Assembly (NCBI GenBank): GCA_026770705.1
Contig: JANJGN010000018.1
Span: 40,610,001-40,674,000 of the forward strand
DNA: 64,000 bases
Direction of reading: 5' to 3'
Source: Isurus oxyrinchus
Lineage: Eukaryota
The position numbers and the translations under genes are program-made. Every line of letters begins with the position of its first letter. The first letter of the stretch is position 1. The notes beneath the pieces were generated by a model that saw only the letters and a list, made by a program, of their open reading frames with translations, was not told the origin of the DNA and searched no databases. Of this stretch, positions 899 through 60,339 are shown piece after piece.

Positions 899-2410
899 AT
901 CATTGCTGTTGTCAGTCCCTTCAGATGAAGATGATGTCTGCCAGCCTTCAAGATTTGTGTGTTCTCAGGTGACTCCAATCCTGGAGCCACAGGTCTTTGG
1001 GCAGAAAGGACAAGAGTTGCTCCAAGTAAAAAGAGTTTTCTTGAGCCAGGGTTCTGCTCTCTTTCCTTCCACTTTCATTGTTTTTCTGCAGCAGAGTTTA
1101 TGCAGCAGTTCCTGACTGTGTTGCAGCTTATTGGATGAGGCACCACAACACAGCACAATTAACGACAAATTCCTTCCGTGCACCAATGTCAATTTGTTCC
1201 CTTTTCAATAAAGCCTTCAGAGTGTCCTTAAAATGTTTTCTCTGCCTTCCTTGAAATTGGGTGGCATTTAAGTTTGAAAAGAGGATCTGCTTCAGATGCG
1301 GTGTCTGGGTGAGTGGAGCTGATTTCGCATGATTGTGGTTGCAATGCTGGAGGAATTGGCTTTGGTGAGAATGCCAGAGCTTGTTCATCTGTATAAAAAC
1401 AAAAAACTGCAGATGCTAGAAATCCAAAACAGAATTACCTGGAAAAACTCAGCAGGTCTGGCAGCATCGGCGGAGAAGAAAAGAAAAGAGTTTGAGTTCT
1501 GTTGAAGGGTCATGAGGACTCAAAACGTCAACTCTTATCTTCTCCGCCGATGCTGCCAGACCTGCTGAGTTTTTCCAGGTAATTCTGTTTTTGTTTTGTT
1601 CATCTGTATTCCCACTTGACTTTGAGTATTCTGCAGAGACACTGTTGGTGGGGATTCTCCAGTGATCAGAGACTTTGGAAGGTAGCCCAAGTCTCACTGC
1701 CATATAGAAAGTTGGTGACTAAAGCTTTTGCCCTCTTACGAAGATCTCTATTGTCAAAGACCCGCTTGTGCAATTTTTGGAAGGTGCAGCAGCACAGCCA
1801 ATTTGGTGCTGGATCTCCCCTTTGATGGTGACCTTTTGAGAAAGGTAGCTCCCAGGATCTGGGAAGTGTTCAAAACTTCTTAAATTCTCCCCATCAATAA
1901 CAACAGTTGGAGGTGTGGATGCTTGAATGGAGGAGGGCTGGTGGAGGATTTTGGTCTTGCTGATGTTGATTGAGGGATTAACCCTTTTGTATGCAGAGTT
2001 GAAGAGTTTGAGGATGGCCTGAACGTCGTTTGCAGTGTGGGCCACAACTCTGCAGTTGTTGGCATATTTTAAGTCAAGGCTCTCAGCTTGATGAGGTTGA
2101 AAAGCTTCTCATTGAATTGAAACTCATATTATGAGCGCCTGTGAAAATTGGTCATGAATGAGTTCCATGACCAGGCTGAGGTAAATAGTAAAGAGTTGGT
2201 GCAATAATACATCCTTCTTTGATGCCTGTCCATATGTGAAAGGACTTGGTCTCTAATCCATTGCAAAGGATGGTTGCTGTGATGCAATCATACAGAGTGG
2301 ATAGTAACAAATTTTGCTGGTCACCAATCTCTAGAGGACTTTCCAAAATGCTTCACAGGTGATGGAGTCAAAGGCCTTTAACTGATCAAGAAAGGCCATG
2401 TAGAGTTCTA
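899..2410 (-). mobile_element. RTE-clade LINE remnant (RT and 3' end)
   Basis: Degenerate minus-strand peptides GIKEGCIIAPTL, HTANDVQAILKLF...INISKTKILHQ, RQRKHFKDTLK; boundaries approximate. Confidence 0.7.
1395..1595. mobile_element. Fold-back (inverted) PLE pLTR insertion
   Basis: Two inverted pLTR 3' segments. TSD ttgttcatctgtat at 1381-1394 and 1596-1609; interrupts an RTE-like LINE remnant. Confidence 0.88.
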
Positions 2411-5405: not shown

Positions 5406-6296
5406 GTAGAAAAGGCACTCAAAGAGGTTGTAAGAACAGTCTAGAGAGAACACTCTGGAAGCAGCTACCTGCATGATGAATAGCATCATGCATGACAGTA
5501 ACCTGGGATCTGTAATTAGTTAAAGACTACCAATAAAGGGTTCATGTTTAAACAGACAAGTCTCAAGAACTCATCAAAGAGCCACAACAGTCGATCACCC
5601 ATAGTACAACAGGCATCAACCACTTCCCAAGTGGACATTACACCCGTGTGAGCTTAAACATGGAATAATTTATCTTTGAAGGTGTCACATGGGAACCTGA
5701 TCACAACCTCACCTGACATTCACGCTGTCATCAGGTGTCAGTAAACATCAGAAAGGAAGAGGGGCTGTAGTGCATTTTTACCTTGCCCAGCCCAGAAGTG
5801 AAGATATTTTAGCACATTGCTGTTGCTCTTACTAAGGCAATTTATTTGTTTCCCAGTTTAAAACAGCTTAGCTACCCAGATAATCTCAAAGAACTGGTTA
5901 TGAAATATTAAAGAGACTAGATTGTGTAGTGAACACTATTCCGTAGTGCTTCGAAAGAGAGCAGGACCTGCTACCAACTAGGGCAAAGATAACCATGTAA
6001 AAGAGGTAGCCCCTTATAATATAAATCAGAGTCAATGAGATCTCCTGAAGTAGTTTTAATTGCCTAAACAGGGTAGGAGAGGAGTTTTCCAGATTTTCCT
6101 ATCTAATGGCCTAGGTTTTTATTCTGGCAATGACTTGGCTCCAAGTGGGTAGAGGCTGTCTGTATCGTGATGCAAATCAGATCTATATAGGCCAGAGATA
6201 AAAACAAAGAAAACTGCGGATGCTGGAAATCCAAAACAAAAACAGAATTACCTGGAAAAACTCAGCAGGTCTGGCAGCATCGGCGGAGAAGAAAAG

Positions 6297-6333
6297 AGTT
6301 GACGTTTCGAGTCCTCGACCCTTCGACAGAACT
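6297..6333 (-). ncRNA. Hammerhead motif in 3' pLTR of the left arm (2-nt shorter loop II)
   Basis: Reverse complement reads agttctgtcgaagggtc-gag-gactcgaaacgtcaact. Confidence 0.65.
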
Positions 6334-6714
6334 TGATTTCGAGTCCAAGAAAGAGTTGAAATATAAGTTGGTTTAAGGTGTGTGGTGTGGGGGGGGCGGA
6401 GAGATAGAGAGAGAGAGAGGTGCTTGTGCAGACAAACAAGCAGTGATAGAAGTAGATCATCAAAAGATGTCAGCGACAATGGTACAAAAGAACACAGAGG
6501 TGTTAAAGTTAAAGTTGGTGATATTATCTAAACGAATGTGCTAATTAAGAATGGATGGTAGGGCACTCAAGGTACAGCTCTAGTGGGGGTGGGGGGAGCA
6601 TAAAAGATTTTAAAATATTTTAAAATAATGGAAATAGGTGGGAAAAGAAAAATCTATCAAATTTATAGGGGAAAAAGGGGGAAACAGAAAGGGGGTGGGG
6701 ATGGGGGAGGGAGC

Positions 6715-9471
6715 TCACGACCTAAAGTTGTTGAATTCAATATTCAGACCGGAAGGCTGTAAGGTGCCTAGTCGGAAGATGAGGTGTTGTTCCTCCAGTT
6801 TGCGTTGGGCTTCACTGGAACAATGCAGTAAGCCAAGGACAGACATGTGGGCAAGAGAGCAGGGTGGAGTGTTAAAATGGCAAGCGACAGGGAGGTTTGG
6901 GTCATTCTTGCGGACAGACCGCAGGTGTTCTGCAAAGCGGTCGCCCAGTTTACGTTTGGTCTCTCCAATGTAGAGGAGACCACATTGGGAGCAACAAATG
7001 CAGTAGACTAAGTTGGGGGAAATGCAAGAGAAATGCTGCTTCACTTGAAAGGAGTGTTTGGGCCCTTGGACGGTGAGGAGAGAGGAAGTGAAGGGGCAGG
7101 TGTTACATCTTTTGCGTGGGCATGGGGTGGTGCCATAGGAGGGGGTTGAGGAGTAGGGGGTGATGGAGGAGTGGACCAGGGTGTCCCGGAGGGAGCGATC
7201 CCTACGGAATGCCGATAAGGGGGGTGAAGGGAAGATGTGTTTGGTGGTGGCATCATGCTGGAGTTGGCGGAAATGGCGGAGGATGATCCTTTGAATGCGG
7301 AGGCTGGTGGGGTGATAAGTGAGGACAAGGGGGACCCTATCATGTTTCTGGGAGGGAGGAGAAGGCGTGAGGGTGGATGCGCGGGAGATGGGCCGGACAC
7401 GGTTGATGGCCCTGTCAACGACCGTGGGTGGAAAACCTCGGTTAAGGAAGAAGGAGGACATGTCAGAGGAACCGTTTTTGAAGGTAGCATCATCGGAACA
7501 GATGCGACGAAGGCGAAGGAACTGGGAGAATGGGATGGAGTCCTTACAGGAAGCGGGGTGTGAGGAGCTGTAGTCGAGGTAGCTGTGGGAGTTGGTGGGT
7601 TTGTAATGGATATTGGTGGACAGTCTATCACCAGAGATTGAGACAGAGAGGTCAAGGAAGGGAAGGGAAGTGTCAGAGATGGACCACGTGAAAATGAAGG
7701 AGGGGTGGAGATTGGAAGCAAAATTAATAAATTTTTCCAAGTCCCGACGAGAGCATGAAGTGGCACCGAAGTAATCATCGATGTACCGGAGAAAAAGTTG
7801 TGGAAGGGGGCCGGAGTAGGACTGCAACAAGGAATGTTCCACATACCCCATGAAGAGACAGGCATAGCTGGGGCCCATGCGGGTACCCATAGCCACACCT
7901 TTTATTTGGAGAAAGTGAGAGGAGTTGAAGGAGAAATTGTTCAACGTGAGAACAAGTTCAGCCAGACGGAGGAGAGTAGTGGTGGATGGGGATTGTTCGG
8001 GCCTCTGTTCGAGGAAGAAGCTAAGGGCCCTCAGACCATCCTGGTGGGGGATGGAGGTGTAGAGGGATTGGACGTCCATGGTGAAGAGGAAGCGGTTGGA
8101 GCCAGGGAACTGGAAATTGTTGATGTGACGTAAGGTGTCAGAGGAATCATGGATGTAGGTGGGAAGGGACTGGACAAGGGGAGAGAGAAGGGAGTCAAGA
8201 TAACGAGAAATGAGTTCTGTGGGGCAGGAGCAAGCTGAGATGATTGGTCTACCGGGGCAGTTCTGTTTGTGGATTTTGGGTAGGAGATAGAAGCGGGCCG
8301 TCCGAGGTTGGGCGGCTATCAGGTTGGAAGCTGTGGGAGGGAGATCCCCAGAGGAGATGAGGTCAGTGACAGTCCTGGAAACAATGGCTTGATGTTCAGT
8401 GGTGGGGTCATGGTCCAGGGAGAGGTAGGAGGAAGTGTCTGCGAGTTGACGCTCAGCCTCCGCGAGGTAGAGGTCAGTGCGCCAGACAACAACAGCACCA
8501 CCCTTGTCAGCGGGTTTGATGACAATGTCAGGGTTGGACCTGAGAGAATGGAGTGCAGTAAGTTCAGAGAGAGACAGGTTAGAATGGGTGAGAGGAGCAG
8601 AGAAATTGAGACGACTAATGTCGCGCCGACAGTTCTCAATGAAAAGATCAAGAGAAAGTAAGAATCCAGAGGGAGGGGTCCAGGTGGAGGGAGAATATTG
8701 GAGATGGGTAAAAGGATCGGTTGAACTGGGAGAGGACTCCTGCCCAAAGAAGTGAGCCCGGAGACGAAGACGGCGAAAGAAGAGTTCAGTATCATGCCGA
8801 GCCCGAAATTCATTGAGGTGAGGGCGTAAGGGTATGAAACTAAGTCCTTTGCTGAGCACTGAACGTTCAGCATCAGAGAGGGGAAGGTCAGGGGGTATAG
8901 TGAATACACGGCTGGGGCTGGGATTGGAAGATGAGGTGGGGACGGAGGGACAGGCTGGGGTGGAGGGTCCTAGATGGGTGTTGGTGTCGATGAGTTGTTG
9001 GAGCTTGCATTCCTTAGCAGTTGAGAGAAAGAGAAAAAGTTTCTTGTTGAGGCGTCGGATGAGCCGAAGGATAAAATGAAACTGGGGGCACGCGCAGCTT
9101 TGAAAAAGGGTACGGCGGTGCTGCTGGAGGGAGAGGTCGAGTGTGTTCATATGGCGGCGCATGGCACTGAGTGTGGATTTCAGAATGTGACGGGAACAGC
9201 AGTCTGAGAAACGTTTTATGTCCCGGAGATACCGGTAATCCTGGGTGCGTTCGAAAGATGAGGGGTGGAATTTCAGTTGAAATCCGCATGGGGTAAGTCG
9301 GAGACGGAGACAGTCACTGAGAAAGGAGATATGGCTGTGAAAGCGGGTTTTAGTAAACGCCTTGTCAAACACCAGGAGGGAAATGGAAAGCAAAGAAGGT
9401 GAACAAGGCAACAGAGAGATACGGAAATCTTGTCGCAGAGAGGAACAGAACTTCTTCAAGGAGGTAGGCAT
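6715..9471 (-). CDS. PLE polyprotein: reverse transcriptase + Cys linker + GIY-YIG endonuclease (intact, 918 aa from first ATG)
   Basis: Uninterrupted ORF with IKPADKGG, FYLLPKIHK, FTMDVQSLYT, GVAMGTRMGP, LRYIDD, FLDL, CPRKRCNTC linker, LVYC..C..C..LYIGET...R..EH and C-terminal GLN. The ORF-track start at 9495 is TTG. Confidence 0.93.
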   Translation of the reverse strand: MPTSLKKFCSSLRQDFRISLLPCSPSLLSISLLVFDKAFTKTRFHSHISFLSDCLRLRLTPCGFQLKFHPSSFERTQDYRYLRDIKRFSDCCSRHILKSTLSAMRRHMNTLDLSLQQHRRTLFQSCACPQFHFILRLIRRLNKKLFLFLSTAKECKLQQLIDTNTHLGPSTPACPSVPTSSSNPSPSRVFTIPPDLPLSDAERSVLSKGLSFIPLRPHLNEFRARHDTELFFRRLRLRAHFFGQESSPSSTDPFTHLQYSPSTWTPPSGFLLSLDLFIENCRRDISRLNFSAPLTHSNLSLSELTALHSLRSNPDIVIKPADKGGAVVVWRTDLYLAEAERQLADTSSYLSLDHDPTTEHQAIVSRTVTDLISSGDLPPTASNLIAAQPRTARFYLLPKIHKQNCPGRPIISACSCPTELISRYLDSLLSPLVQSLPTYIHDSSDTLRHINNFQFPGSNRFLFTMDVQSLYTSIPHQDGLRALSFFLEQRPEQSPSTTTLLRLAELVLTLNNFSFNSSHFLQIKGVAMGTRMGPSYACLFMGYVEHSLLQSYSGPLPQLFLRYIDDYFGATSCSRRDLEKFINFASNLHPSFIFTWSISDTSLPFLDLSVSISGDRLSTNIHYKPTNSHSYLDYSSSHPASCKDSIPFSQFLRLRRICSDDATFKNGSSDMSSFFLNRGFPPTVVDRAINRVRPISRASTLTPSPPSQKHDRVPLVLTYHPTSLRIQRIILRHFRQLQHDATTKHIFPSPPLSAFRRDRSLRDTLVHSSITPYSSTPSYGTTPCPRKRCNTCPFTSSLLTVQGPKHSFQVKQHFSCISPNLVYCICCSQCGLLYIGETKRKLGDRFAEHLRSVRKNDPNLPVACHFNTPPCSLAHMSVLGLLHCSSEAQRKLEEQHLIFRLGTLQPSGLNIEFNNFRS

Positions 9472-9572
9472 TTCTTGAAGAGCAGTGGCAGTCAATTAAA
9501 CACAGAGATAAAAACAAAGAACACACACCTTAAACCAACTTATATTTCAACTCTTTCTTGGACTCGAAATCA

Positions 9573-9611
9573 AGTTCTGTCGAAGGGTCATGAGGACTCG
9601 AAATGTCAACT
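9573..9611 (+). ncRNA. Hammerhead motif in 5' pLTR of the right arm (stem III C>T)
   Basis: Same motif but gaaaTgtc instead of gaaaCgtc, which breaks the ACGT palindrome. Confidence 0.6.
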
Positions 9612-9746
9612 CTTTTCTTCTCCGCCGATGCTGCCAGACCTGCTGAGTTTTTCCAGGTAATTCTGTTTTTGTTTTGGATTTCCAGCATCCGCAGTTTTCT
9701 TTGTTTTTATCTCTGTGTTTAATTGACTGCCACTGCTCTTCAAGAA

Positions 9747-12503
9747 ATGCCCACCTCCTTGAAGAAGTTCTGTTCTTTTCTGCGACAAGATTTCCGTATC
9801 TCTCTGTTGCCTTGTTCACCTTCTTTGCTTTCCATTTCCCTCCTGGTGTTTGACAAGGCGTTTACTAAAACCCGCTTTCACAGCCATATCTCCTTTCTCA
9901 GTGACTGTCTCCATCTCCGACTTACCCCACGTGGATTTCAACTGAAATTCCACCCCTCATCTTTCGAACCCACCCAGGATTACCGGTATCTCCGGGACAT
10001 AAAACGTTTCTCAGACTGCTGTTCCCGTCACATTCTGAAATCTACACTCAGTGCCATGCGCCGCCATATGAACACACTCGACCTCTCCCTCCAGCAGCAC
10101 CGCCGTACCCTTTTTCAAAGCTGCGCGTGCCCCCAGTTTCATTTTATCCTTCGGCTCATCTGACGCCTCAACAAGAAACTTTTTCTCTTTCTCTCAACTG
10201 CTAAGGAACGCAAGCTCCAACAACTCATCGACACCAACACCCATCTAGGACCCTCCACCCCAGCCTGTCCCTCCGTCCCCACCCCATCTTCCAATCCCAG
10301 CCCCAGCCGTGTATTCACTATACCCCCTGACCTTCCCCTCTCTGATGCTGAACGTTCAGTGCTCAGCAAAGGACTTAGTTTCATACCCTTACGCCCTCAC
10401 CTCTATGGATTTCGGGCTCGGCATGATACTGAACTCTTCTTTCGCCGTCTTCGTCTCCGGGCTCACTTCTTTGGGCAGGAGTCCTCTCCCAGTTCAACGG
10501 ATCCTTTTACCCATCTCCAATATTCTCCCTCCACCTGGACCCCTCCCTCTGGATTCTTACCTTCTCTTGATCTTTTCATTGAGAACTGTCGGCGCGACAT
10601 TAGTCGTCTCAATTTCTCTGCTCCTCTCACCCATTCTAACCTGTCTCTCTCTGAACTTACTGCACTCCATTCTCTCAGGTCCAACCCTGACATTGTCATC
10701 AAACCCGCTGACAAGGGTGGTGCTGTTGTTGTCTGGCGCACTGACCTCTACCTCGCGGAGGCTGAGTGTCAACTCGCAGACACTTCCTCCTACCTCTCCC
10801 TGGACCATGACCCCACCACTGAACATCAAGCCATTGTTTCCAGGACTGTCACTGACCTCATCTCCTCTGGGGATCTCCCTCCCACAGCTTCCAACCTGAT
10901 AGTCGCCCAACCTCGGACGGCCCACTTCTATCTCCTACCCAAAATCCACAAACAGAACTGCCCCGGTAGACCGATCGTCTCAGCTTGCTCCTGCCCCACA
11001 GAACTCATTTCTCGTTATCTTGACTCCCTTCTCTCTTCCCTTGTCCAGTCCCTTCCCACCTACATCCGTGATTCCTCTGACACCTTACGTCACATCAACA
11101 ATTTCCAGTTCCCTGGCTCCAACCGCTTCCTCTTCACCATGGACGTCCAATCCCTCTACACCTCCATCCCCCACCAGGTTGGTCTGAGGGCCCTTAGCTT
11201 CTTCCTCAAACAGAGGCCCGAACAATCCCCATCCACCACTACTCTCCTCCGTCCGGCTGAACTTGTTCTCACGTTGAACAATTTCTCCTTCAACTCCTCT
11301 CACTTTCTCCAAATAAAAGGTGTGGCTATGGGTACCCGCATGGGCCCCAGCTATGCCTGTCTCTTCATGGGGTATGTGGAACATTCCTTGTTGCAGTCCT
11401 ACTCCGGCCCCCTTCCACAACTTTTTCTCCGGTACATCGATGATTACTTCGGTGCCGCTTCATGCTCTCGTCGGGACTTGGAAAAATTTATTAATTTTGC
11501 TTCCAATCTCCACCCCTCCATCATTTTCACGTGGTCCATCTCTGACACTTCCCTTCCCTTCCTTGACCTCTCTGTCTCAATCTCTGGTGATAGACTGTCC
11601 ACCAATATCCATTACAAACCCACCGACTCCCACAGCTACCTCGACTACAGCTCCTCACACCCCGCTTCCTGTAAGGACTCCATCCCATTCTCCCAGTTCC
11701 TTCGCCTTCGTCGCATCTGTTCCGATGATGCTACCTTCAAAAACGGTTCCTCTGACATGACCTCCTTCTTCCTTAACCGAGGTTTTCCACCCACGGTCGT
11801 TGACAGGGCCCTCAACCGTGTCCGGCCCATCTCCCGTGCATCCGCCCTCGCGCCTTCTCCTCCCTCCCAGAAACATGATAGGGTCCCCCTTGTCCTCACT
11901 TATCACCCCACCAGCCTCCGCATTCAAAGGATCATCCTCCGCCATTTCCGCCAACTCCAGCATGATGCCACCACCAAACACATCTTCCCTTCACCCCCCT
12001 TATCGGCATTCTGTAGGGATCGCTCCGTCCGGGACACCCTGGTCCACTCCTCCATCACCCCCTACTCCTCAACCCCCTCCTATGGCACCACCCCATGCCC
12101 ACGCAAAAGATGTAACACCTGCCCCTTCACTTCCTCTCTCCTCACCGTCCAAGGGCCCAAACACTCCTTTCAAGTGAAGCAGCATTTCACTTGCATTTCC
12201 CCCAACTTAGTCTACTGCATTCGTTGCTCCCAATGTGGTCTCCTCTACATTGGAGAGACCAAACGTAAACTGGGCGACCGCTTTGCAGAACACCTGCGGT
12301 CTGTCCGCAAGAATGACCCAAACCTCCCTGTCGCTTGCCATTTTAACACTCCACCCTGCTCTCTTGCCCACATGTCTGTCCTTGGCTTACTGCATTGTTC
12401 CAGTGAAGACCAACGCAAACTGGAGGAACAACACCTCATCTTCCGACTAGGCACCTTACAGCCTTCCGGTCTGAATATTGAATTCAATAACTTTAGGTCG
12501 TGA
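9747..12503 (+). pseudogene. PLE polyprotein, full length with one premature stop
   Basis: Same length (2757 nt) and colinear with the left copy. TGA at 10161-10163 where the partner has CGA (CpG transition); the ORF-track pieces 9723..10163 and 10359..12503 share one frame. Confidence 0.92.
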
Positions 12504-12880
12504 GCTCCCTCCCCCATCCCCACCCCCTTTCTGTTTCCCCCTTTTTCCCTATAAATTTTATAGATTTTTCTTTTCCCACCTATTTCCATTATTTTAAAAT
12601 ATTTTAAAATCTTTTATGCTCCCTCCACCCCCACTAGAGCTGTACCTTGAGTGCCCTACCATCCATTCTTAATTAGCACATTCGTTTAGATAATATCACC
12701 AACTTTAACTTTAACACCTCTGTGTTCTTTTGTACCATTGTCGCTGACACCTTTTGATGATCTGCTTCTATCACTGCTTGTTTGTCCACACAACCACCTC
12801 TCTCTCTCTCTATCTCTCCGCCCCCCACACACACACCTTAAACCAGCTTATATTTCAACTCTTTCTTGGACTCGAAATCA

Positions 12881-12919
12881 AGTTCTGTCGAAGGGTCATG
12901 AGGACTCGAAACGTCAACT
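12881..12919 (+). ncRNA. Minimal type I hammerhead ribozyme in PLE pLTR (variant core)
   Basis: agtt-CTGTCGA-a-gggtc-atgag-gactc-GAAA-c-GTC-aact: stem I agtt/aact, stem II gggtc/gactc, palindromic ACGT mini stem III, GUC cleavage triplet. Hammerheads are an established feature of PLE pLTRs. Confidence 0.75.
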
Positions 12920-14678
12920 CTTTTCTTCTCCGCCGATGCTGCCAGACCTGCTGAGTTTTTCCAGGTAATTCTGTTTTTGTTCTATATAGGCCAGGCTTGA
13001 CAAATCAATATTTTTTTCATGTTATTTCTGTATATTTTTGATTACCACAAGAGAGATCAAGGATTAAAACAGGGACCTTCCTGGTCTAGTTAAAACTTGC
13101 CTTTATCAATTGAGCCTTTACATTTTGATCCTCTTTTCAAAGAATACTCCCACATGTGCATGAGTGAGAATAGATATGAACAGTATTGTCAATATTGTCT
13201 TTTCTTAGCCATAAAATGTATGTGGCCGGTTTGCAAAATCCTTGTCAATTATCTTGTTTATTTTTATAAAATCTTGCTTCATTAAAAACATAATAACAAA
13301 GTGCATTTACATTTTAGAATTAGACTGTTGAGCCTCATCTCTGTAAATGCTAATTTGTTAATTTGTTGAGCGCTCCATATTAAGTGACTTCTGGAGTCAG
13401 CAAAAACTTCATATATCCCTTTTATTTGTTACTGAGAAATGGAATGTTTCAGAATGAATTAGTAGATGTGCTGCAGCATAACTCTTTATTTAATCAGTTT
13501 ATCTGTGTCTCATTGATATTGCAGTAACATAATGGAAAAAACCTTTTTTGTGAGTGTGGAATAGTGACAATGAAACCCTTTCTCCAAAGAAATCAGTCTT
13601 TTTTTCTATAATGAAATCTGGAAAAAAGTTGTTTTGGTTTCTTTTTCTAGAAGTTCTTGTATCCTGTGGCTTCTGTCAATGCAAGACCACAGAGTGAGAC
13701 TGGAATTTGTTCTGAGCAAAAGAGGTTGAAGCTGGAGCCAACAAAGCACCAGAGGGAGTTGATGTTCAACATTTTCCAGTTTGGTGAAGCAATGCAAATG
13801 GATTTAGGCTATGGCACAACTGGAGACAGAAAATGGTGACTGTGGCAATGACTGCAGCCCAGATAATTCTCTTCCACTAACAGCTGGATTTCGGCGAGCT
13901 GGTGCTGAGGCTGTTAGTAAAGAGCACAGCAGCTTTGCTTTTTCTGTGTATTTTCACCTGGTCTTGTCCTTCACTGCAGCACTAATGTCACATGCTAATA
14001 CTTTAGGTTCATGCTTTAGGTATTGGCTTGTTGGCTTTGGAGAGGCAGGAATTAAAGAACACATAAAATGAAGATGATAGTACACTTACCTTGGAGCTGA
14101 ATCACTCAAAGGACCCAGTCAGCAAAATGTCAAACAAATGAAAGGTGGCAAGTGCTCACATCAGTTCCACCTCCTAGATTATAGCCATGAAAATGACAGC
14201 CAACACCAGGGTTCAAATGCAGAATTGTCGCATATCGCAAATGCACTGGTGCTGAAAATAACACTAGCATGAAATCCCTTGGAAAATGTTAATTAGACTT
14301 TAAAATATAATTAGGTACACATGTTCTGTCAGGGAAGAGAATCTGTAAAATATCACTCTCTCTTGGTCCTGAGCTAATTTAAATAGATGTTCAGGTGGCT
14401 GACACTGGCCATCACACATCACAGAGTAAGACATGAATTCATTCCCCACCATGCCTGCTTTTCATCTCTTTTTAAATTCTATACCACTCCTTGACCAAGA
14501 AGAGGACATAAACCTCTGCTAATGCATTCATCAAGAGAGATATATGGCTTGTGTTTAGATTTACCCTCCTGTGCTACTAATAAGGCACCTAGCCACCACT
14601 GCACAGTATGTTCTTTGTAAGCATGCAAGGATTAGAAGTTTATTCTGTACTTGAAAGGAACAAATGTAGGTTCAATAC

Positions 14679-15086
14679 CTGGACGCTGGACAGTGACAGT
14701 GGTCAGTCCGGACATATTCTCTCCAGCTTTATACCAGATGTTGTTGGGGTTCAGCAGCCATTCCTCCACATGACAATAGTATTTCCCACTATCATCAACA
14801 TCAGCTTTTAGTAAGACTAAAGTGTAATGCCCGCTTAAAGCTTTTTCAGCTTGCAGTCTCTCCTTTCTCTTGTCTCTTCCTAACCAGTCCTTATACTCGA
14901 CCACATAGTCACGGTTTGATATCAGGATGAGTTTATCATCTTTCTCCAATGATTTCTGAACGTACCATTGCACGGAGAATTGCGAGTCTGGTCTTGTTTG
15001 ATTCGTGATGATACAATCTAAATGAATGTTGTCATTTTCTTTTACTACAATGTTCCTTTTTATTTGGTTGACTTTTAATCTACAAT
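14679..15086 (-). CDS. IGSF3: IGSF3 internal exon, Ig V-set domain 6
   Basis: DCRLKV...IHLDCII...QWYVQK...DKLIL...DDSGKYYCHVEEWLLNPNNIWYK...SGLTTVTVQRP. ttttccttacag acceptor, gtattg donor; 408 nt, phase 1-1, in frame with the Ig5 exon. Confidence 0.9.
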
Positions 15087-16915
15087 CTGTAAGGAAAAAA
15101 TTGATTAGTCACATGCAGGACAATGGTAAACACAAAATAAAAACACATTTCTGTAATATTTTCCTCTTTTTTTTCTCTCAGATATTCTAGTAACCATAGT
15201 GACCCAGATTTTGCAGTCAGTGGTAAAGTGATGACATCGACCATTGACCTCTAAGAAAGCTCCCCACGACGATCGAGCAATCTCTGTGGCGTGGATTTCC
15301 CCTTTCCAGATATTAATTTGAATCTGGCACCAAGTCAAGGGAATCTCCAGGTGCCCAGAAACAGTCAGCTCATCAAGCAGAGTAATCAGCCAGTCACACT
15401 GAAGTAGACAGTAGAGACAGCAAACTAGCAGGTAAAATGCACTGATTATTCTTCACTTTTTAAATATCTTTTTAGAGAGAATGAAAAAAATGATTGAGAC
15501 ATACATGTGGGATTAAGGTAGAAGCTGAGCTATCGTAAACAGGCTTTTAGAAATGTTAAAAATGTGGATTTTTTTTTTAACTGTAATGGAGAAATTTGGC
15601 ATTCAGCAAATATAACAGTTTATCAGGGCCTGAAAGATAGTTCAGTAATAATTATGAATTTAGTATGCCACGAAAACCCAGTTACACCATTTTCAAAAAG
15701 GTGCAACTTTTTTCAAGGGTTTTTATAGCAGATCTAATAGCGTAAAAGGGCAAGTTCTTGTCAGTTCTGTGATTTCTAATTGTTTGTAGTCTGGGGGTAC
15801 TTCATAGTGCACATTTTGGACAAGCAAGGAGTTACTGACAGCAACTTCTGGATTTTCACTTTTAACTGCGCATGTACAGTCTCCAGGTGTTGCTGCCAGT
15901 TTCAGAGGGAGTAATGATGGTGAATTCTGACAGTTTTGCTGTTATTACTGCTGCAAAATCCAAGCCATCTTCCTCTACAACTGGAGTAAGCACTTCTCCA
16001 CAAGTTGAGCTGTAAGGCAATTTACTTCCAAGCAAGACACTATTTTCTTCTCTAACTCTTCTGCACCCTCCTCTCTGTCTGTTACAGCATTGTAGTGAGA
16101 TAACCCATGTAACAGATGAGTCAACATCAAATAAAACTATTTATAAAACAACGTAACTGTGGTCACATTGGACCATCAGACAAGTATGTGACTCAAATTC
16201 ATAATCACAGGTCTTCAAAACAGACATCTTAACCATACCACTACAGGAACTGCATTGTCTGTCTTTTTTCTGAGTCGATGAACTAATTGAGAGGAGTGTG
16301 AGTCATATGAATAACTGTTTCACCATGGAAAAATTAAGGAGATTATTCAGTGACGAGCAAGATAATTTAGAGTATACTAAGGTTTAGCGTGACTCCAGCT
16401 GGCCAGCAACAAAGATAGCTACGAAACCTGGCTGAGAAACAGAAAAAAAGATGCTTCTCTGTTCCAGTTTTTAATTTTCACTGGAATAATTTGGCATTAA
16501 TGCTGTTTCTGCTTTGCAATATTCATTGAGGCCATCAATGTGATGTACAACAGGTATTATATCCAAAAAGCTGCTGTGTTTGTATCCTTTTTGTGCAAAT
16601 CTGTACTACATTAATATTTAATCAAAGCACTTACATATTAACATGCCAACTGTAATGTTACTCCTGCTGGTAATTTAAAAATAACTTGCAGATTGCAAGT
16701 TCCTCAGATTGCATTGTAACATGAAAAGAAACTTTGTAATGAAACCATTCTTGTTTGCAAACTGGTTTCTGGGAAATGAATCACTGTATGATATAGGAAG
16801 ATTTATAATGAAGTATTGTGTAAAAACAACAATAATTTCCTTTCAGAAAAAAGTTGTATGTTGAAAAACTGTGTTGCAGGATTAATGGCTGTAGGTCTAG
16901 CAACCTTTTGCTGAC

Positions 16916-28820: not shown

Positions 28821-30504
28821 ATAGCTGGGCCCCAGCTATGCCTGTCTCTTTATGGGGTATGTGGAACATTCCTTGTTGCAGTCCTACCCCGGCCCCCTTC
28901 CACAACTTTTTCTCCGGTACATCGATGATTACTTCGGTGCCACTTCATGCTCTCGTCGGGACTTGGAAAAATTTATTAATTTTGCTTCCAATCTCCACCC
29001 CTCCATCATTTTCACGTGGTCCATCTCTGACACTTCCCTTCCCTTCCTTGACCTCTCTGTCTCAATCTCTGGTGATAGACTATCCACCAATATCCATTAC
29101 AAACCCACCGACTCCCACAGCTACCTCGACTACAGCTCCTCACACCCCGCTTCCTGTAAGGACTCCATCCCATTCTCCCAGTTCCTTCGCCTTCGTCGCA
29201 TCTGTTCCGATGATGCTACCTTCAAAAACGGTTCCTCTGACATGTCCTCCTTCTTCCTTAACCCAGGTTTTCCACCCACGGTCGTTGACAGGGCCATCAA
29301 CCGTGTCCGGCCCATCTCCCGTGCATCCGCCCTCACGCCTTCTCCTCCCTCCCAGAAACATGATAGGGTCCCCCTTGTCCTCACTTATCACCCCACCAGC
29401 CTCCGCATTCAAAGGATCATCCTCCACCATTTCCGCCAACTCCAGCATGATGCCACCACCAAACACATCTTCCCTTCACCCCCCTTATCGGCATTCCGTA
29501 GGGATCGCTCCCTCCGGGACACCCTGGTCCACTCCTCCATCACCCCCTACTCCTCAACCCCCTCCTATGGCACCACCCCATGCCCACGCAAAAGATGTAA
29601 CACCTGCCCCTTCACTTCCTCTCTCCTCACCGTCCAAGGGCCCAAACACTCCTTTCAAGTGAAGCAGCATTTCACTTGCATTTCCCCCAACTTAGTCTAC
29701 TGCATTTGTTGCTCCCAAGGTGGTCTCCTCTACATTGGAGAGACCAAACGTAAACTGGGCGACCGCTTTGCAGAACACCTGCGGTCTGTCCGCAAGAATG
29801 ACCCAAACCTCCCTGTCGCTTGCCATTTTAACACTCCACCCTGCTCTCTTGCCCACATGTCTGTCCTTGGCTTACTGCATTGTTCCAGTGAAGCCCAACG
29901 CAAACTGGAGGAACAACACCTCATCTTCCGACTAGGCACCTTACAGCCTTCCGGTCTGAATATTGAATTCAATAACTTTAGGTCGTGAGCTCCCTCCCCC
30001 ATCCCCACCCCCTTTCTGTTTCCCCCCTTTTTTTTTCCCTATAAATTTTATAGATTTTTCTTTTCCCACCTATTTCCATTATTTTTAAATATTTTAAAAT
30101 CTTTTATGCTCCCTCCACGCCCACTAGAGCTGTACCTTGAGTGCCCTACCATCCATTCTTAATTAGCACATTCGTTTAGATAATATCACCAACTTTAACT
30201 TTAACACCTATGTGTTCTTTTGTACCATTGTCCCTGACATCTTTTGATGATCTGCTTCTATCACTGCTTGTTTGTCTACACAATCACCTCTCTCTCTCCC
30301 TATCTCTCCGCCCCACACACACACCTTAAACCAGCTTATATTTCAACTCTTTCTCGGACTCGAAATCAAGTTCTGTCGAAGGGTCATGAGGACTCGAAAC
30401 GTCAACTCTTTTCTTCTCCGCCGATACTGCCAGACCTGCTGAGTTTTTCCAGGTAATTCTGTTTTTGTTTTGGATTTCCAGCATCCGCAGTTTTCTTTGT
30501 TTTT
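28821..30504 (+). mobile_element. 5'-truncated PLE copy (RT C-terminal half, GIY-YIG, 3'UTR, pLTR with tail)
   Basis: ORF 28852-29988 is near-identical to the dimer ORFs. TSD atttctttgcac at 28809-28820 and 30505-30516. Confidence 0.92.
30369..30407 (+). ncRNA. Minimal hammerhead ribozyme in PLE pLTR
   Basis: Same 39-nt motif as 12881-12919. Confidence 0.75.
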
Positions 30505-31429
30505 ATTTCTTTGCACTTGTTGCACTGCTACATCACTGTATCTTACACAGTTTTTTTGTGCAAAACTGATGATAATTTATTAGAAATATATAAAAAAAGC
30601 CTTTCATAATGATTTTCAACTCTACTTCCTAAATGAGATAATTATCCAATAGAAGTGCAAAGCAGTGTACCACAATTTTGGGTCAAAATCCTGGAACTCC
30701 CTTCTTTATAGCACTGTGGGTGTACCTATATGACATGGACTGCAGTGGTTCAAGAAGGCAGCTCACCACCACCTTCTCAAGGGCAACTAGGAATGGGCAA
30801 TAAATGCTGGCCCAGCCAGCAAAGTCCACATCCCGTGAATGAATAATAAAAATAAAAAAATTCTGTTTGGGTAGTGATTTTAAGTTAATCTGTATATGTA
30901 AGGCATTATAAAAGTTGAAATGAAAACTTGCCACCATTTCCTGCTGTTTGCACACCGTTCCTCAGACTCCATTAGTGTTCAGCCTAAGTGCCTTTCTGTA
31001 GAGTCTTTAGGGATCAGAACCAAAATTCTACAGAGTGCTGGAAACACTAATGATTTGTGCTGTCAAGACTGAAACCAGATCTTGCACCCGAGTGAGGGAG
31101 GAATTAAACAAAGTGTTGTGTCCATTGCTCTGTTCAAGATAACTGGGGAAAATGATATCTGTTAATAAGTGTCAAGTAACCTGATCTTAGGTAGAATGAT
31201 GATCAGTATGGAAATTGCAAATTTAATATTAATAGTTTAGAAATAATTTATAAGATATGAAAAAAATATTTTTAATTAAATGCTCAATTCAGATTCTATT
31301 TTAATTTAGAACAGAAAATGTGAGTAATTCATAGCAGGACAGGCTGTAAATGTGGAGAGAACAGGTAAGTTAACATTTTGGGTATGGATCCTTCATCAGA
31401 ACTAAAAGATATGACAAATAAACAAAATT

Positions 31430-32549: not shown

Positions 32550-33320
32550 AATAGGAAATATATACATGGCACACAACGGTGAGTGTTATGAATAGAAAAG
32601 TTTCGCTGAAAGTGAAAGGAAGAAACTACGAGACAGTTGTGGCCTTGTTATCTAGTGCAGAAACCTGGACAACATCAAGAAGAGAGGAACAACGAATGGA
32701 TACTAATGAGATGTGGATGCTAAGATGGATGTGTAGAGTAACGAGACGGGATAAAATCAGGAGTCAGCACATCAGGGGGTTAGTGATGACAGTGGGAGCA
32801 TTGAAGAAAGTAGCAGGGAAAACGTTGAAATGGTATGTCACCTGTTGCAAGACAGAGGGAAAGGAAATGTGGTGAAACAAAACAGAAAATGCTGGAAAAA
32901 CTCAGCAGATCTGGCAGCATCTGTGGAGAGAGAAACAAAGTTAACGTTTTGAGTCTGTATGACCCTTCTTCAGAAGGGTCTGAAGCTCTGAAGAAAGGTC
33001 ATACGCACTCAAAACATTAACTCTTTCTCTCTCCACAGATGCTGTCAGACCTGCTGAGTTTTTCCAGCAATTTCTGTTTTTGTTACAGATTTCCAGCACC
33101 CGCAGTGTTTTGCTTTTATCTACAGAAATGTGGTGAGGACAGTGACGGAGATGGGACTGCCAGGAAGAAGGAGAAGAGGAAGGCCCATGATGAGATGGAA
33201 AGATGGTGAGAGATTTAAATCATTTGGAAGAGTAATAGGTGACTGATAGGAGGACGTGGAGAAGGGTGATCAATCAGCATTGTGGTGACCCTAAGTAAAG
33301 TAGGAGAAGCCAAAAGAAGA
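32550..33320 (+). mobile_element. RTE-clade LINE 3' remnant
   Basis: KVKGRNYETVV...AETW...EMWMLRWMCRVTRRDKIRSQHIR, then GRRRRGRP..RW.D after the pLTR insertion. Confidence 0.7.
32876..33124. mobile_element. Fold-back PLE pLTR insertion, related older subfamily (CTGAAGA core)
   Basis: Inverted arms ...aaactcagcagatctggcagcatctgtggagagag... / ...ctccacagatgctgtcagacctgctgagtttt... TSD gaaatgtggtga at 32864-32875 and 33125-33136. Confidence 0.85.
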
Positions 33321-38180: not shown

Positions 38181-39442
38181 TTGTCTGCCTTATAGGATGC
38201 TTTGGTGTCTATTTTACATCTGTAAAACGCTGTAGTTTCATCACATTTCTCTGCTTATAAGTGTCTTGGAAGTTCCCCCTGTGATGTTTCTCAACCTCTT
38301 TCTTCTTCTTCTCACTGTGCTTCTGGAATGCTGAACTCATGCATTATTTCTGCTGCCCAGGAAAGATTTTGAGATAAATGCCTTCAAATCAAATAAGACC
38401 CATTCAGCATTGTGAATAAACATATGCTTTGTTAAAGATGATTTGAAAATATTTGAGAACACCTAACGAATGACTCAAGATTTTAAGAGTTAAAGATCCT
38501 CCATTCTGTGTGATTCTGATGAATGGCTCAGAGAAGAACATTCATTACAACTAATGCACAGTGACTCTAATTACTGCTGTGAAAGAACAGTGAAAACATT
38601 AATGGCCACTGGCTCCATTCAATCCTACTTGCAGGAAATGAGCTTTGACGCAAAGCTGACTTTAGAACCTCAAGGGACAGCTACATTTAAGACTGAAGTA
38701 GATGATGGAGATGGGAGCGACTGGAAAGAAAGAAATGAAGTCTAAACTACGGAGCATAGGGAAAGGGAGAGTCTGACTAACAAATAAAAAATAAGTTTTT
38801 ACGTTCTTTGAAGCTTTTAAAGAAGCTTCATTATGGTAGAAAAGGGAGGATATCTGGATGGCATTTACTGATGCAAAACAAACAAACCAGTGCATTCTGT
38901 GTGATGTAGTAATGTTCTGAAACAAATTGTCTGTGTTGGAAAACAAATGCAGGCACCTGCTAAATACTATTCCAATAAACAACGCGTCTTAGTTTTCTGA
39001 TAGCTCAGCATATTTACCTAATAAATAATTGAGCAATTGAAGGCCCACATATAACCTTCCGTTGTGCTGAGCTAGCTGATCTCAGCCAATGTGCAGGTAG
39101 AAGCTCTGTGTATCAGCCAAGGGTCAGTTGATAGCATTCTTGCTTTGGAGTCAAGGGGTTGTGGTTTAACCCCTGGGCTGACACCCTTGTGTGATACTGA
39201 CAAAGTGCTACATTGTCAAAAGGTGCCCTCTTTTGGATGAAATGTTAAACCAAGGCCCCATCTACTCTCTCAGCTGGATATAAAAAATGAGCAGGGAACT
39301 TTTCCCTGGTCTCCTGGCCAATATTTATTCCTCAGTCAATACCACTGTGAAAAATAATCACTGTTGTCTGGGAGAGCTTGCTCTGTAGAAATTGGCTGCT
39401 GCATTTCTTACATTACAACAATGGCCAGACTTCAAAAGTACT

Positions 39443-39573
39443 GAAGAAGAGTTGTACGAACTTGAAACTTTAACTCTGTTCCTCTCCCCACAGATGCTGA
39501 CAGACCTGCTGAGTTTTTATGCATTTTCTGTTTTTATTTCAGATTTCCAGAATCCGCAGTATTTTGCTTTTAT
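39443..39573 (+). mobile_element. Solo PLE pLTR (older subfamily) inserted in a DeuSINE-like element
   Basis: ctgaagaagag...gaaactttaactctg...cagatgctgacagacctgctgag...ccgcagtattttgctttta. TSD cttcaaa(a/c)gtact at 39430-39442 and 39574-39586. Confidence 0.75.
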
Positions 39574-43790: not shown

Positions 43791-45307
43791 TCACAATTGT
43801 GTCAGAATTAGCATTTCCTGGTTAAAGGGTAGTTATTGTTAAATCAACATAATATGCAAACTAACTCCTTTTATTCTGGTTTTGCTCTGATTTATCCAGA
43901 AGCTGCCAAAATGTGGGCCTATACATACTGTGGTTTACTAAGTTCATCCGTTTAATTCGCTGCAATGGCTGTGTTGAGGCAGGGCGCTCTTTGTGCTACT
44001 CTTTACATTTAAGTAAAAGATACTACTGAAGAGTTTGCTGCATTGAGGGCAGTTAATCTTATTTTTTAAAAAAATGCTAATTCAATTGTGATTCAGTATA
44101 AACTTATTACAGTAAACATTGCTTTATTTTTTTAGCCTGAGCTACACAGTCTGCTAATATTGTGCATTTCATTGGTTTGGAGAGATCACATAATGGTAGG
44201 CAAATTTATTTCCAGTGTGTATCCCAATAATAGAAAAGTTAATTGTTCACCTCCTGGCAACACCATCCAGTCTAGATAAAATCAAGCTTCAATTCATAAG
44301 AAATGTGAAGTTACCTATGGATGCTGACTGCTGTATTGACCGTGAATAACAAACTGTGGAAAAGGATACATTTACACTACGGCTGAGTGAACTGTTTCGA
44401 TTAGGCTGCTGCTTCATGGGGACATTTAATTTGCAATTCTTATTTCAAGCAAAGAGAAGATGCAAGCCTGGAAGTGATTATGAGAAATGTTACAATAACA
44501 TGTTCATATCAAATTCTATTTTAACGGAGGTATTCACTCACAAAAAATGGGTGGATGTTGTAGATAGCATAAAATCATGGCACAAGCAATTAAGGGTAAA
44601 TATATTCATAAATGCAGTTGCTGCCACATTGTCACTGACTTTAAAATGGTGAATTATAAAGTTAGCTCTTTAAAAAATAATGCTTGGGCTTCACTGCTTT
44701 TGGTTCTGGATTTGAACTGCAATTGAAGTATAAATGATAATTGGAGATTCAGTTTCCAAATTTATCAGCAACTGAAAAGGACAGGTAGAAATTCTGATGG
44801 GTAAGTGGGCAGGGGCTCTCTTTCCCTTCATCTCAGCACATTACTTTAATATTATTGTCTAATTCGTCCATCTAATCTTTTTGAAAAGCTGAAGTCAGAG
44901 CACTTTCAATAAAAGCATGTCAGTGTGAAGTACTTTCATAAGCCTTTTCATTACTTCACAGAAGACTCACATACTTTCATGCAAAGAAATTAAAAATCTG
45001 ACATTAATACCATAATGTTTTGCTGATTTTGTGAAAGTAAAGCTTCTATCACTTTTAGGGAAAAGATGAAAGGCAAAAACATCAAAGGGAAATGTTCTCA
45101 ATTTGAACACTGACTAGTGATTTTCAGTCAAACATTTTGGTCTGATTTTGTTTGCGTCTGTATGAGTAATATAACTGATATCAGAAGCTGCAGGCAGATC
45201 AGTGAGATCTTGCAGACTGGGTCATCACTACAGCGTCTATTTGGTGAGCAAAAGCTGTGTCACTCAAAATCAATAAGTTCTTATTATAAGCACATGCTTT
45301 TTAATAA

Positions 45308-45555
45308 AAACAGAATTTCCTGGAAAAACTCAGCAGGTCTGGCAGCATCGGCGGAGAAGAAAAGAGTTGACGTTTCGAGTCCTCATGACCCTTCGACAGA
45401 ACTTGAGGAACTTCATCAAGTTCTGTCGAAGGGTCATGAGGACTCGAAACGTCTACTCTTTTCTTCTCCGCCGATGCTGCCAGACCTGCTGAGTTTTTCC
45501 AGGTAATTCTGTTTTTGTTTTGGATTTCCAGCATCCGCAGTTTTTTTTTGTCTTT
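45308..45555. mobile_element. Fold-back PLE pLTR insertion with two inverted hammerhead motifs
   Basis: ~100-bp near-perfect inverted arms around spacer ggaacttca. TSD tgctttttaataa at 45295-45307 and 45556-45568; hammerhead motifs at 45365-45403 (-) and 45419-45457 (+). Confidence 0.9.
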
Positions 45556-46529: not shown

Positions 46530-46754
46530 CTATAACGGAACATAGACATGCAGATAAAATTAGAGCATGGGAATCCAGCAGTGAAGAATTATAATCAAAA
46601 GCTTGTTCTTCAAGTCCTGGGACTGTGAGTTTGTTACCCATATCTGCTGACTGCAGTTTGTCCTTCCAAGCTTCAAAGCTTCTCTGCCTCTCCTAAAAAT
46701 TCTGACTCTTGCTGGGATATTTCACCGGCTTTCCAATATAGTATTATCATTATG

Positions 46755-51829: not shown

Positions 51830-53450
51830 TTTTTTATTCATGGGATGTGGGTATCACTGGCTAGGTCAGCATTTATTGCCCATGCATAATTAGCATTGAG
51901 AATGTGGTAGTGAGCTGCCTTCATGAACTGCTGCAGTCCATGTGGTGTAGGTACACTCAGAGTACTGCTGGGGAGTTGCAGGGTTTTGACCCAAAGACAG
52001 GGAAGGAACGGCGATACAGTTCCAAGTCAGGATGGTGTGTGGCTTGGAGGGGAACTTGCAGATGGTGGTGTTCCCATACATCTGCTGCCCTTGCCCTTCT
52101 AGAATGTAGAGGTCACGGGTTTGCAAGGTGCTGTCAAAGGAGCCTTGGAGAGTTGCTGGAGCATCTTGTAGATGGTACACACTGCTGCTACTGTGCGCCA
52201 GTGGAGGGAGTGAATGTTTGTGGATGTGGTGCCAATCAAGCCGGCTGCTTTGTCCTGGATGGTGTGGAGCTTCTTGAGTGTTGATGGAGCTGCACTCATC
52301 CAGGCTAGTGGAAAGCATTCTGTCACACTCCTGACTTGTGGCTTGTGGATGGCAGACAGGCTTTGGGGAGTCAGGAGATGAGTTACTCCCTGCAGAATTC
52401 CCAGCCTCTGACCTACTCTTGTAGCCACAGTATTTATATGGCTAGTCCAGTTCAGTTTCTGGTCAATGGTAACCCCCAGGATATTGATATTGGGGGATTC
52501 AACAATGCTAATGCCATTGAATGTCAGGGAGCAATGGTTAGATTCTGTCTTTCTGGAGATGGGCATTGCCTGGCACTCATGTGGTGGAATGTTACTTGCC
52601 ACATCAGCCTAAGCCTGGATATTGTCTAGGTCTTGCTGCATTTGAACACGGACTGCTTCAGTATCTGAGGAGTCATGAACGGTGCTGGACATTGTTAAAT
52701 CATCAGTGAACATTCCCAATTCTGGCCTGATGATGGAAGGAAGGTCATTGATGAAGCAGCTGAAGATGGCTGCGTCTAGGACACTACCTTGAGGAACTCC
52801 TGCAGCGATGTCCTGGGACTGAGATGATTGACCTCCAACAACCACAACCAGCTTCCTTTGTGCTGGGTACGAATCCAACAAGTGGAGAGTTTTCCTTCAA
52901 TTCCCTTTGACTTCAGTTTTGCTAGAGCTCCTTGATGCTGCACTTGGTAAAATGCTGTCCTGATATCAAGGGCAGTCACTCTCACCTCACCTCTTGAGTT
53001 CGGTGTTTGGATCAAAGCTGTAATGAGGTCTGGAGCTGAGTGGCCCTGGTAGAATCCAAACTGAGCGTCAGTGAGCAGGTTATTGCGAGTGCGTGCCACT
53101 TGATAGCATGTCAACAACACCTTCCATCACTTTGCTGATGATTGAGAATAGACTGATGGGGCAGTTATTAGCCAGGTTGGATTTGTCCTACTTTTTATGT
53201 ACAGGACATACTTGTGCAATTTTCTACTTAGTTCTGTTGAAGGGTCATAAGGACTCGAAATGCCAACTTTGTTCTTCTCCGCCGATGCTACCAGACCTGC
53301 TGAGTTTTTCCAGGTATTTCTGTTTTTGTTTTGAATTTTCCACATTGCCAGGCAGATGGCAGTGTTGTAGCTGTATTGGGACAGCTTGGCTAGAGGTGTG
53401 GCTGGTTCTGGAGCACAAGTCTTCAATGCTATTGCTGGAATGTTGTCAGG
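51830..53450 (-). mobile_element. CR1-clade LINE remnant with an HE1-SINE-like 3' end
   Basis: GPDNIPAIALKTCAPE, LLTDAQFGF, GVPQGSVL...FINDLPS, ILGVTIDQKLNW. The 3' end is shared with the elements at 30680-30850 and 37460-37600. Confidence 0.85.
53228..53333 (+). mobile_element. Solo PLE pLTR inserted in a CR1 remnant
   Basis: agttctgttgaagggtcataaggactcgaaat...ctgtttttgttttg. TSD aattttc(t/c)ac at 53218-53227 and 53334-53343. Confidence 0.82.
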
Positions 53451-59169: not shown

Positions 59170-59305
59170 TAAAGGTAAAATACTGCGGACGCTGGAAATT
59201 TGAAATGAAAACAGAAAATACTGGAAAAGCTCAGCAAGACTGGCAGCATTTGTGGAGAGAGAAACAGAGTTAATGTTTTAAATCTGTATGACTCTTCTTC
59301 AGAGC
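59170..59305 (-). mobile_element. Solo PLE pLTR remnant (older subfamily)
   Basis: aaaatactgcggacgctggaaat...ctcagcaagactggcagcatttgtggagagag...gactcttcttcag, the reverse complement of the pLTR motif. Further decayed copies at ~31310-31405 (-), ~33750-33840 (+) and ~47760-47870 (+). Confidence 0.7.
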
Positions 59306-60339
59306 CCTAATTCTTTAATACCCTCTTTAAGCTGTCAATCAAACGGAGCTCAGAACATTCTGCTGAGATAACTAGAAATTTTGAAACTCAGTCAAGCATT
59401 CATAATGAATAGCCATGAGGGAAATAACAAAGATCCCTATTTAAATTGTTCAAACAGATGTTACACCAGTTGGCCTGTCATTCAAATCTGTCCAACAGAG
59501 GTTTTTTTTAAACAATCACTGACAGCTCCAGCCAGTTTTTCTTTTACAGTTTAAAGAGTAGGGAATTTAAAAAGCTTCAGATCATGACAGTGAAATAGAC
59601 TTTACCCATCTGTCAAGAGCATTATACGTCCACTCATAAATTCATGACTCCCACACCGCAGGTTCAGGCCCTTGCAAGAGCCAAAACTAGGTCTATTTGA
59701 ACTCAGCACTAAGTTCAAATGGTCCTGCTGAGTTCATGTTTCCCTCATGTATGAAACATGCCCTACTGACAAAAATGGGATCTACTGGAAATGGGGGTGG
59801 AACTTCTGTATCCAGGTCCCACCACCAACTTTAAAGGTCCACAAAGTCTTTCTGACTCTGAAAATCCAGCCCTTTACATCCCACTCAGGAGTGCCTTAGT
59901 CCTCACTATTAACATAACACCTGAAGTGAAAGTACAAGTCATTCATTTTCAATAATTCTTAAAGCTTAATGTAATAGGATGAAAGATGGCTTAAATAAAT
60001 TTTGAATATTTTTAAATGTGTTTAACTTTATAGTAACATTTCTTCTGTTTGTTGAGTGCATTGCATCTGCTTGTTCACCAACGTTCCAACGTTCCTAACA
60101 ATTTTCTTCTTACTTGGGTAAGCTCTATTATTCTGCAGATGCAGTATTTATCACTCCAAAAAATAGAAAACTATATTTGAAATGAAGGGTAAGGAAATGC
60201 CAAAAGAAAAGCAAAAGATGAAAATATAAAAAGCAATTAAAATTTTCAATGAAAATTTAGAAAAAAATGAAAATGTGTTGTCAGCCAACATCGGATTGTT
60301 TTGATGACGTTATTCAGCACTTTCTTTAATTCTTTGTTC

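Follow-up and report, generated by a model that had tools for sequence, protein, structure and literature searches.

The motif at positions 12881–12919 of the window (the whole 64,000-nt stretch of DNA that was analysed) was confirmed, from its sequence, as a type I hammerhead of the minimal kind, carried by the pseudo-LTR (pLTR) of a Neptune/Nematis-type Penelope-like element (PLE), with U in place of the conserved A at core position 6. With a probability of about one half, we read this U6 motif as an attenuated ribozyme with a fold that selection still maintains, lying where the element's RNA would have its 5' end and passed on through copies made from uncut RNA. In a genome of 5 Gb, the element ranks among the most successful repeats; its expansion came after a "strictly conserved" core base had changed, and the A6A7 and A6U7 ancestors, the U6U7 and U6C7 descendants and a C6 side group are all legible in that one genome. 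The features of the window are collected in Table 1.

The stretch 12881–12919 has stems I and II, the extra base after A9, the G10.1-C11.1 pair, GAAA, the palindromic positions 15.2/16.2 and H17. C17 lies at 12915, where the original prediction had placed it, and the predicted cut follows it by homology to the published minimal hammerhead consensus (PMC4209133). The window motif lacks the A6 of the CUGANGA core, which the ancestral stages have. The motif works like, and derives from, a PLE minimal hammerhead and, as this one defining core letter fails, it is a variant rather than a plain member. In 12 copies, 92.6% of cells are paired, against at most 45% when the register is slid; covariation in 12 copies amounts to one both-sided and three one-sided changes in nine pairs, a score reached by 83/500 shuffles. 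None of the 22 Rfam matches at E ≤ 10 was to a hammerhead family, and the old A6 copies also matched none, so the assignment is based on the published consensus and not on a covariance model. In RNA starting at stem I, the predicted probability of stem II is only 0.06–0.15 (four latest stages).

Table 1 Features of the window, with positions counted from its first letter.
Feature	Position	Strand	Remarks
Target-site duplication (14 bp), left copy	6182..6195		Flanks whole 6193–12981 insertion
Target-site duplication (14 bp), right copy	12981..12994		
Inverted partner ORF	6715..9471	-	Open 918 aa; DKG, YIDD, CX4CXXC linker, GIY-YIG
PLE ORF (RT + GIY-YIG)	9747..12503	+	One premature stop, codon 139
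3' pseudo-LTR of plus-strand element	12504..12981	+	Hammerhead motif near its end
TATA-like box TATATTT (TATAAAT in oldest stage)	12849..12855	+	Putative promoter role
Fast-evolving spacer with two 10-mers (12855–12864, 12868–12877)	12855..12880	+	Match in or just after hammerhead, in permuted order
Stem I 5' strand AGUU	12881..12884	+	Putative first transcript nucleotides; truncated-copy 5' ends cluster here
Core C3-U4-G5-U6-C7-G8-A9 plus extra A typical of PLE hammerheads	12885..12892	+	U6 = 12888
Stem II GGGUC/GACUC (one G-U pair), loop AUGAG	12893..12907	+	
G12-A13-A14, palindromic ACGU replacing stem III, C17	12908..12915	+	Predicted cut after 12915
Stem I 3' strand AACU	12916..12919	+	
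Conserved pLTR end box to insertion's right end	12936..12981	+	3/46 sites changed since U6
5' pLTR hammerhead copy	9573..9611	+	U6; ACGT decayed to ATGT
Hammerhead copy of inverted partner	6297..6333	-	U6; 2-nt loop deletion
Young U6 hammerhead copy	30369..30407	+	
Head-to-head pair of short U6 copies	45303..45553		45365–45403 minus, 45419–45457 plus
CUGUUGA copy with G12>A	1495..1533	+	
CUGUUGA copy, mid-age linker	53230..53268	+	
Old A6 (CUGAAGA) copies, head-to-head pair	32939..33022		
Old A6 copy	59268..59306	-	
Old decayed A6 copy	39437..39475	+	

Within the window, the cores stand where they had been reported: CTGTCGA at 6329 (minus), 9577, 12885, 30373, 45399 (minus) and 45423, CTGTTGA at 1499 and 53234, and the older CTGAAGA at 32973 (minus), 32988, about 39441 and 59302 (minus). 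That stem II and the ACGT palindrome are kept is true of ACGT in five of the six CTGTCGA copies and fails for the ATGT at 9577 and for stem and loop defects elsewhere, such as the shortened loop at 6329 and the one broken stem I pair at 45423. The CTGTCGA heptamer alone is a weak marker, with six matches in the window and 4/100 shuffles reaching six. Further older A6 families are present at 47758–47794 and 31372–31399 (minus), with stem II AGGUC/GACCU and a short GGAUC form. Short head-to-head pairs with joints at or near stem I occur at 45303–45553, 1422–1595, 32018–32178 and 32875–33124; the first is joined just 5' of stem I and flanked by a 13-bp duplication, and head-to-head junctions genome-wide track microhomologies such as AACT, ACT and TCA.

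The host element has the attributes of an endonuclease-bearing (EN+) PLE: a 918-aa ORF with RVT_1 (E=2.8e-8), GIY-YIG (E=1.1e-4), DKG and YIDD, and CPRKRCNTC at residue 784 as the CX2-5CXXC linker between RT and EN. On the basis of RT plus GIY-YIG, DKG and the CX4CXXC linker, we place it in the Neptune/Nematis type. The best named protein homologs are from bamboo shark (64–68% identity), which makes a cartilaginous fish the likely host. The pLTRs are arranged as in an inverted partial tandem with a 14-bp target-site duplication, and at another locus (L071, 2210–8903) three U6 hammerheads lie head-to-tail at spacings of 3353 and 3340 nt, the ORF of the unit from 5733 being uninterrupted over 918 aa. 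Ahead of the main ATG at 9747 lie short ORFs (window 9590–9722), one of 18 codons from the loop II ATG and one of 10 from the end box; a third upstream ATG, at 9603, was created by a mutation of that copy itself. In the A6U7 ancestor the core contained an AUG, which was lost through A6U. Around the PLE copies, minus-strand host-gene exons of immunoglobulin V-set/I-set type lie at 14632–15108, 42078–42563, 46132–46692 and 49141–49638, with PLE copies in between; presumably these resemble the IGSF3/CD101 group, and the open frames 37582–38040, 51890–52608 and 60976–61533 look like fragments of non-LTR retrotransposon endonuclease/RT.

The original prediction that position 6 of this PLE minimal hammerhead is fixed as U, with A6 in older relatives, is borne out across the genome: there are 60,876 exact U6C7 (CUGUCGA) 31-mers, with reversed-pattern controls giving 0, against 138 31-mers with A6 on the same stem. 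C or G at position 6 gave 1,751 matches (CUGCUGA in 84 of the first 100 listed). In 1.064 Mb sampled regardless of the motif, made up of 60 spaced stretches of 10 kb and the 464 kb surrounding the window, the 83 copies comprised 65 U6, 15 A6 and 3 C6, and two core-free searches (50,759 and 9,402 matches) had A6 in none of the first 100 listed of each, with U6 in 97 of the first 100 from the smaller search. Thirty A6 loci were inspected by eye, of which 12 were at inversion junctions, 9 had older linkers, 7 had young linkers and 2 were solo; none of them pointed to a part of the young family that had reverted to A6. The idea of another young family, with A6 and GGGUC/GACCC, was likewise rejected, nearly all of the first 100 of 229 matches being point mutants of the U6 family. 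Contigs from sequencing runs of four organisms, in which A6 families align poorly, whose RNA status is a guess and one of which is represented by 9 contigs only, showed no other position-6 letter above 5% of depth; the U6 families are likely common to several related species.

The substitution at position 6 could be placed within the order of subfamilies. A profile gave 333 matches, of which 332 fit the core pattern; 197 were grouped, and the alignment took in 188 of these as ten stages with 5 to 35 copies each, leaving out 2 C6-linker and 7 unassigned copies. This alignment and a ladder-like tree of 109 copies show that the core passed from A6A7 through A6U7 and U6U7 to U6C7, the root being taken from divergence because old A6 copies are nearly absent from the tree. 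At non-CpG sites, copies diverge from the majority of their stage by a mean of 0.114 for A6A7, 0.05–0.06 for A6U7 and the first U6 stages, and 0.013 for the window's own stage. A6U arose in a mid-age subfamily, preceding GGGUC, AUGAG, GUC and C7, as the GAGUC/GUU group (6,307 matches) already mixes the cores: the first 100 listed have 48 UU, 27 AU, 18 AA and 7 other at positions 6/7 (by eye). U6 persisted across eight subfamily stages. The original prediction of a recently active lineage with an altered core thus stands in that the U6 lineage spread, but U6 itself predates the young family, being found in those 48 copies; similarly, CUGUUGA, which had been counted among the young copies, is the ancestral U6 state of the mid-age stages and not decay alone. 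The change of U17 to C came later than U6; GUC is the better cleavage triplet. Position 6 moved again in the amplified C6 side group, which may represent several events because C6 copies sit at several mid-ladder positions in the tree. A still older family with AGGUC/GACCU (144 exact matches), whose stem register can be read two ways, has A6 in 85 of the first 100 (by eye).

Between the first U6 stage and the youngest, 0/13 core sites, 0/2 palindrome sites and 0/8 stem I sites changed, against 58/267 sites in the rest of the pLTR (0/23 constrained hammerhead sites; Fisher p=0.006). The comparison for the 13 core sites alone gives p=0.077, and four-fold sites of the ORF changed at 13/99. Five hammerhead sites did change: N7, H17, two bases of loop II, and a stem pair that went from A-U to G-U; this count of 5/15 free sites is partly circular, since stages S3a–S4 are partly defined by stem II, loop II and H17. 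The flanks of the motif did change (spacer 15/23 sites changed, downstream stretch 5/16). Ninety loci were retrieved with patterns that fix the core, and the core-free listing gives the same majority. The original prediction had posed a choice between a functional variant and a fold kept without cleavage, and posed it rightly: none of the 23 motif sites changed, yet a 16-nt TATA-like box (0/16) and the end box are equally conserved, so that the pattern could arise without catalysis, from constraint on a promoter or on protein binding. Individual copies appear to be unprotected after insertion, as 44 young copies carry 18 post-insertion changes at 18 constrained non-CpG sites versus 23 at 42 tail sites, although junction-adjacent sites may inflate the figure of 18.

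The distance from the TATA-like box to the A of AGTT is 29–32 nt in all 10 stages, a spacing that suits a polymerase II TATA box. Of 223 U6 copies, from loci that were partly selected, 84 break between box and core, and 75 of these 84 retain at most 14 nt, mostly 4–8; in an unselected set, 16/68 copies end at most 20 nt before C3 and 2 end in +30 to +39. Copy 5' ends therefore cluster at stem I and not at the cut site. Given the TATA-like box and these copy ends, the element's RNA likely starts at the ribozyme, in stem I, and the simplest reading is that reverse transcription runs through the uncut motif to that 5' end. Among described PLEs, TATA plus initiator was proposed in the Adineta Pen2a pLTR (PMC3846280), and Penelope of D. 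virilis has a TATA-less internal promoter (PMC2377424).

A fossil trace of cleavage was considered and rejected as support, although a weak signal may be present. A first estimate put the copies that begin precisely after C17 at 357 (11/30 loci x 973), with 94 at +30 (5/30 x 566) and 53 at +33 (2/30 x 797), which favors cleavage, but the cut site does not clearly stand out when microhomology is taken into account. Among 1,086 inversion junctions, the first 100, counted by eye, include 7 at +31, 7 at +28, 6 at +29, 7 at +34 and about 11 at +19; of the 7 at +31, 5 use AACT microhomology, and a scripted count gave 2/30. Also rejected were a shift of the 5'-end peak where the spacer is longer by 3 nt (medians 5 and 4 nt, not significant at p=0.18) and a role of old spacers as a polypyrimidine-AG acceptor, the truncated copies being without a common upstream exon. 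The listed contig joints had no GT-AG skip and no start or end sites, which carries no weight as these are contigs only, and a bacterial promoter scan, whose model is irrelevant to this element, found nothing.

The permuted partial duplicate upstream of the motif is real, as originally described: two 10-mers are shared with the downstream sequence, a match that 0/1000 linker shuffles reach. It exceeds chance only in stages S8 and S9, the last two of the eight U6 stages, and the stage alignment shows that it was built stepwise over S4–S9 by single substitutions and short insertions. About ten successive spacer changes each raise the match to the two downstream 10-mers; repeated short templated copying by the RT, or selection on promoter DNA, is a possible source of this convergence. 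Under the proposed switch, GGGUC would pair with the upstream GACUCGAAA to give an alternative stem II, and this pairing would toggle the ribozyme; the non-random match lends something to the idea, as does the expectation that read-through RNA at the 3' pLTR would include the spacer. We nevertheless regard such a switch as highly improbable: the predicted pairing probability is 0.001, the native spacer is no worse for stem II than shuffled ones, the duplicate postdates U6 by six stages and was not made by one duplication, and GACUCGAAA would be missing from promoter-driven RNA because it lies between the TATA-like box and the likely start. An anti-ribozyme clamp formed by the spacer was rejected too, since shuffled spacers lower stem II likewise (10–46/100 shuffles leave it as low as the native spacer in S8 and S9). 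In the youngest stage only, 12869–12897 presents GACUC-GAAAUC, AAGUU and CUGUCGA-A-GGGUC in the order expected for a permuted hammerhead of type II, with no loop room in stems III and I and a predicted pairing of 0.001; this order is probably a by-product of the convergence.

If the U6 motif is an attenuated ribozyme, as we favor, A6U would strongly lower the cleavage rate, by analogy to A6C and to mutational scans. A natural A6C variant has low but detectable activity, with one or two hydrogen bonds expected to be lost (PMC3088659), and shows a strong preference for Mn2+, the A6C mutation lowering the rate from 0.3 to 3.55e-6 per min at 0.3 mM Mg2+ (PMC7151607). In another hammerhead, scanned through all its single and double mutants, those of the CUGA region were poorly active, rescue coming only from a C3-G8 swap (PMC9901934), and even canonical PLE minimal hammerheads are described as slow and inactive as monomers (PMC4209133). 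For these reasons, A6U likely lowers a rate that was already low. What cleavage is left would be slow and would likely need dimer formation and the element's protein. The drop in rate may be tolerated in that reverse transcription would start downstream and have to read through the uncut motif, and in that cleavage some 35 nt from the cap would leave the RNA uncapped; the residual cleavage could then keep the other core residues fixed. A bolder proposal, which we think unlikely, is that position 6 is now a free pyrimidine position, that the element's protein has replaced the role of A6, and that a protein-dependent hammerhead in the first 35 nt de-caps the RNA at a set stage.

The same mutational data can be read differently. 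Poor activity of position-6 mutants (PMC7151607, PMC9901934) would also fit a motif in which A6U abolished cleavage and which was kept as a non-catalytic 5' fold or sequence, for protein binding, RNP assembly or as downstream core-promoter DNA, a reading that we hold tentatively as the less probable one. Conservation of the adjoining non-ribozyme boxes speaks for it, as do copy ends without a pile-up at the cut site, the multiplication of Naiad PLEs without detectable hammerheads, and Anolis core mutants that insert normally in vitro, with no RNA-seq ends at the cut site (PMC11167929). On the other hand, all changes since U6 in the 39-nt motif hit positions left free by the consensus, a pattern that a generic element need not follow, and A6C variants retain some activity (PMC7151607, PMC3088659). 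More doubtful still is a dead relic that looks conserved by chance over a short lineage: the core-only p value leaves room for it, and with so few four-fold ORF sites changed a 13-nt stretch may escape by chance, but the absence of change extends to the palindrome and the two strands of stem I (p=0.006) while the flanks changed at many sites.

PLE hammerheads are slow in vitro and dispensable for insertion in the one reconstituted system. If U6 cleaves, the CUGANGA core rule and search descriptors miss whole families; if it does not, the genome holds natural evidence that PLEs need the fold and not the cut. Should the element's protein replace A6, the ladder of ten stages would offer a natural series on which to study the purpose of PLE hammerheads.

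In structure, the element agrees with EN+ Neptune/Nematis PLEs (10.1101/2021.04.23.441226; PMC3846280) in the C-terminal GIY-YIG, DKG, CX2-5CXXC and pLTRs, and also in the inverted 5'-truncated partner and target-site duplication; no structural difference was found. Its motif shares with the PLE minimal hammerheads of PMC4209133 the pLTR site before the ORF, a short stem I, the extra nucleotide between 9 and 10.1, G10.1-C11.1, GAAA, the palindromic 15.2/16.2 without a stem III loop, and H17. It differs in that their consensus is CUGANGAH, with A6 in all accessible alignment rows, whereas the window lineage has U6 and the side group C6; the core variant reported there is U3-A8, and these rows include no cartilaginous fish. 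A change at position 6 is itself already published as A6C, and a natural A6U was not found in print: the literature search gave no title or abstract on one, its two "A6U" listings being about twister ribozymes and an RNA selection, Lunse et al. 2017, which possibly lists position-6 variants, lying outside it, and the accessible text of a retrozyme preprint with canonical and minimal models (10.64898/2026.07.22.740005) has nothing on A6U. The phage Bcep176 A6C hammerhead (PMC3088659; PMC7151607) is alike in being a natural position-6 change with the rest of the core kept, but it is one phage sequence with measured, low, Mn2+-favored activity, whereas here more than 60,000 U6 copies of an animal retroelement are known from sequence. 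The Poseidon element PAc of Anolis (PMC11167929) is also alike, with a PLE hammerhead near the ORF start and copies seemingly made from uncut RNA; its hammerhead cleaves only with protein, its core mutants leave in vitro insertion unimpaired, and RNA-seq reads neither began nor ended at the cut site. It differs in belonging to the Penelope/Poseidon clade, in its protein-assisted activity in vitro and in that no core change is reported in the available text, and its ORF starts inside the hammerhead, whereas that of the element described here starts about 130 nt past the cut site.
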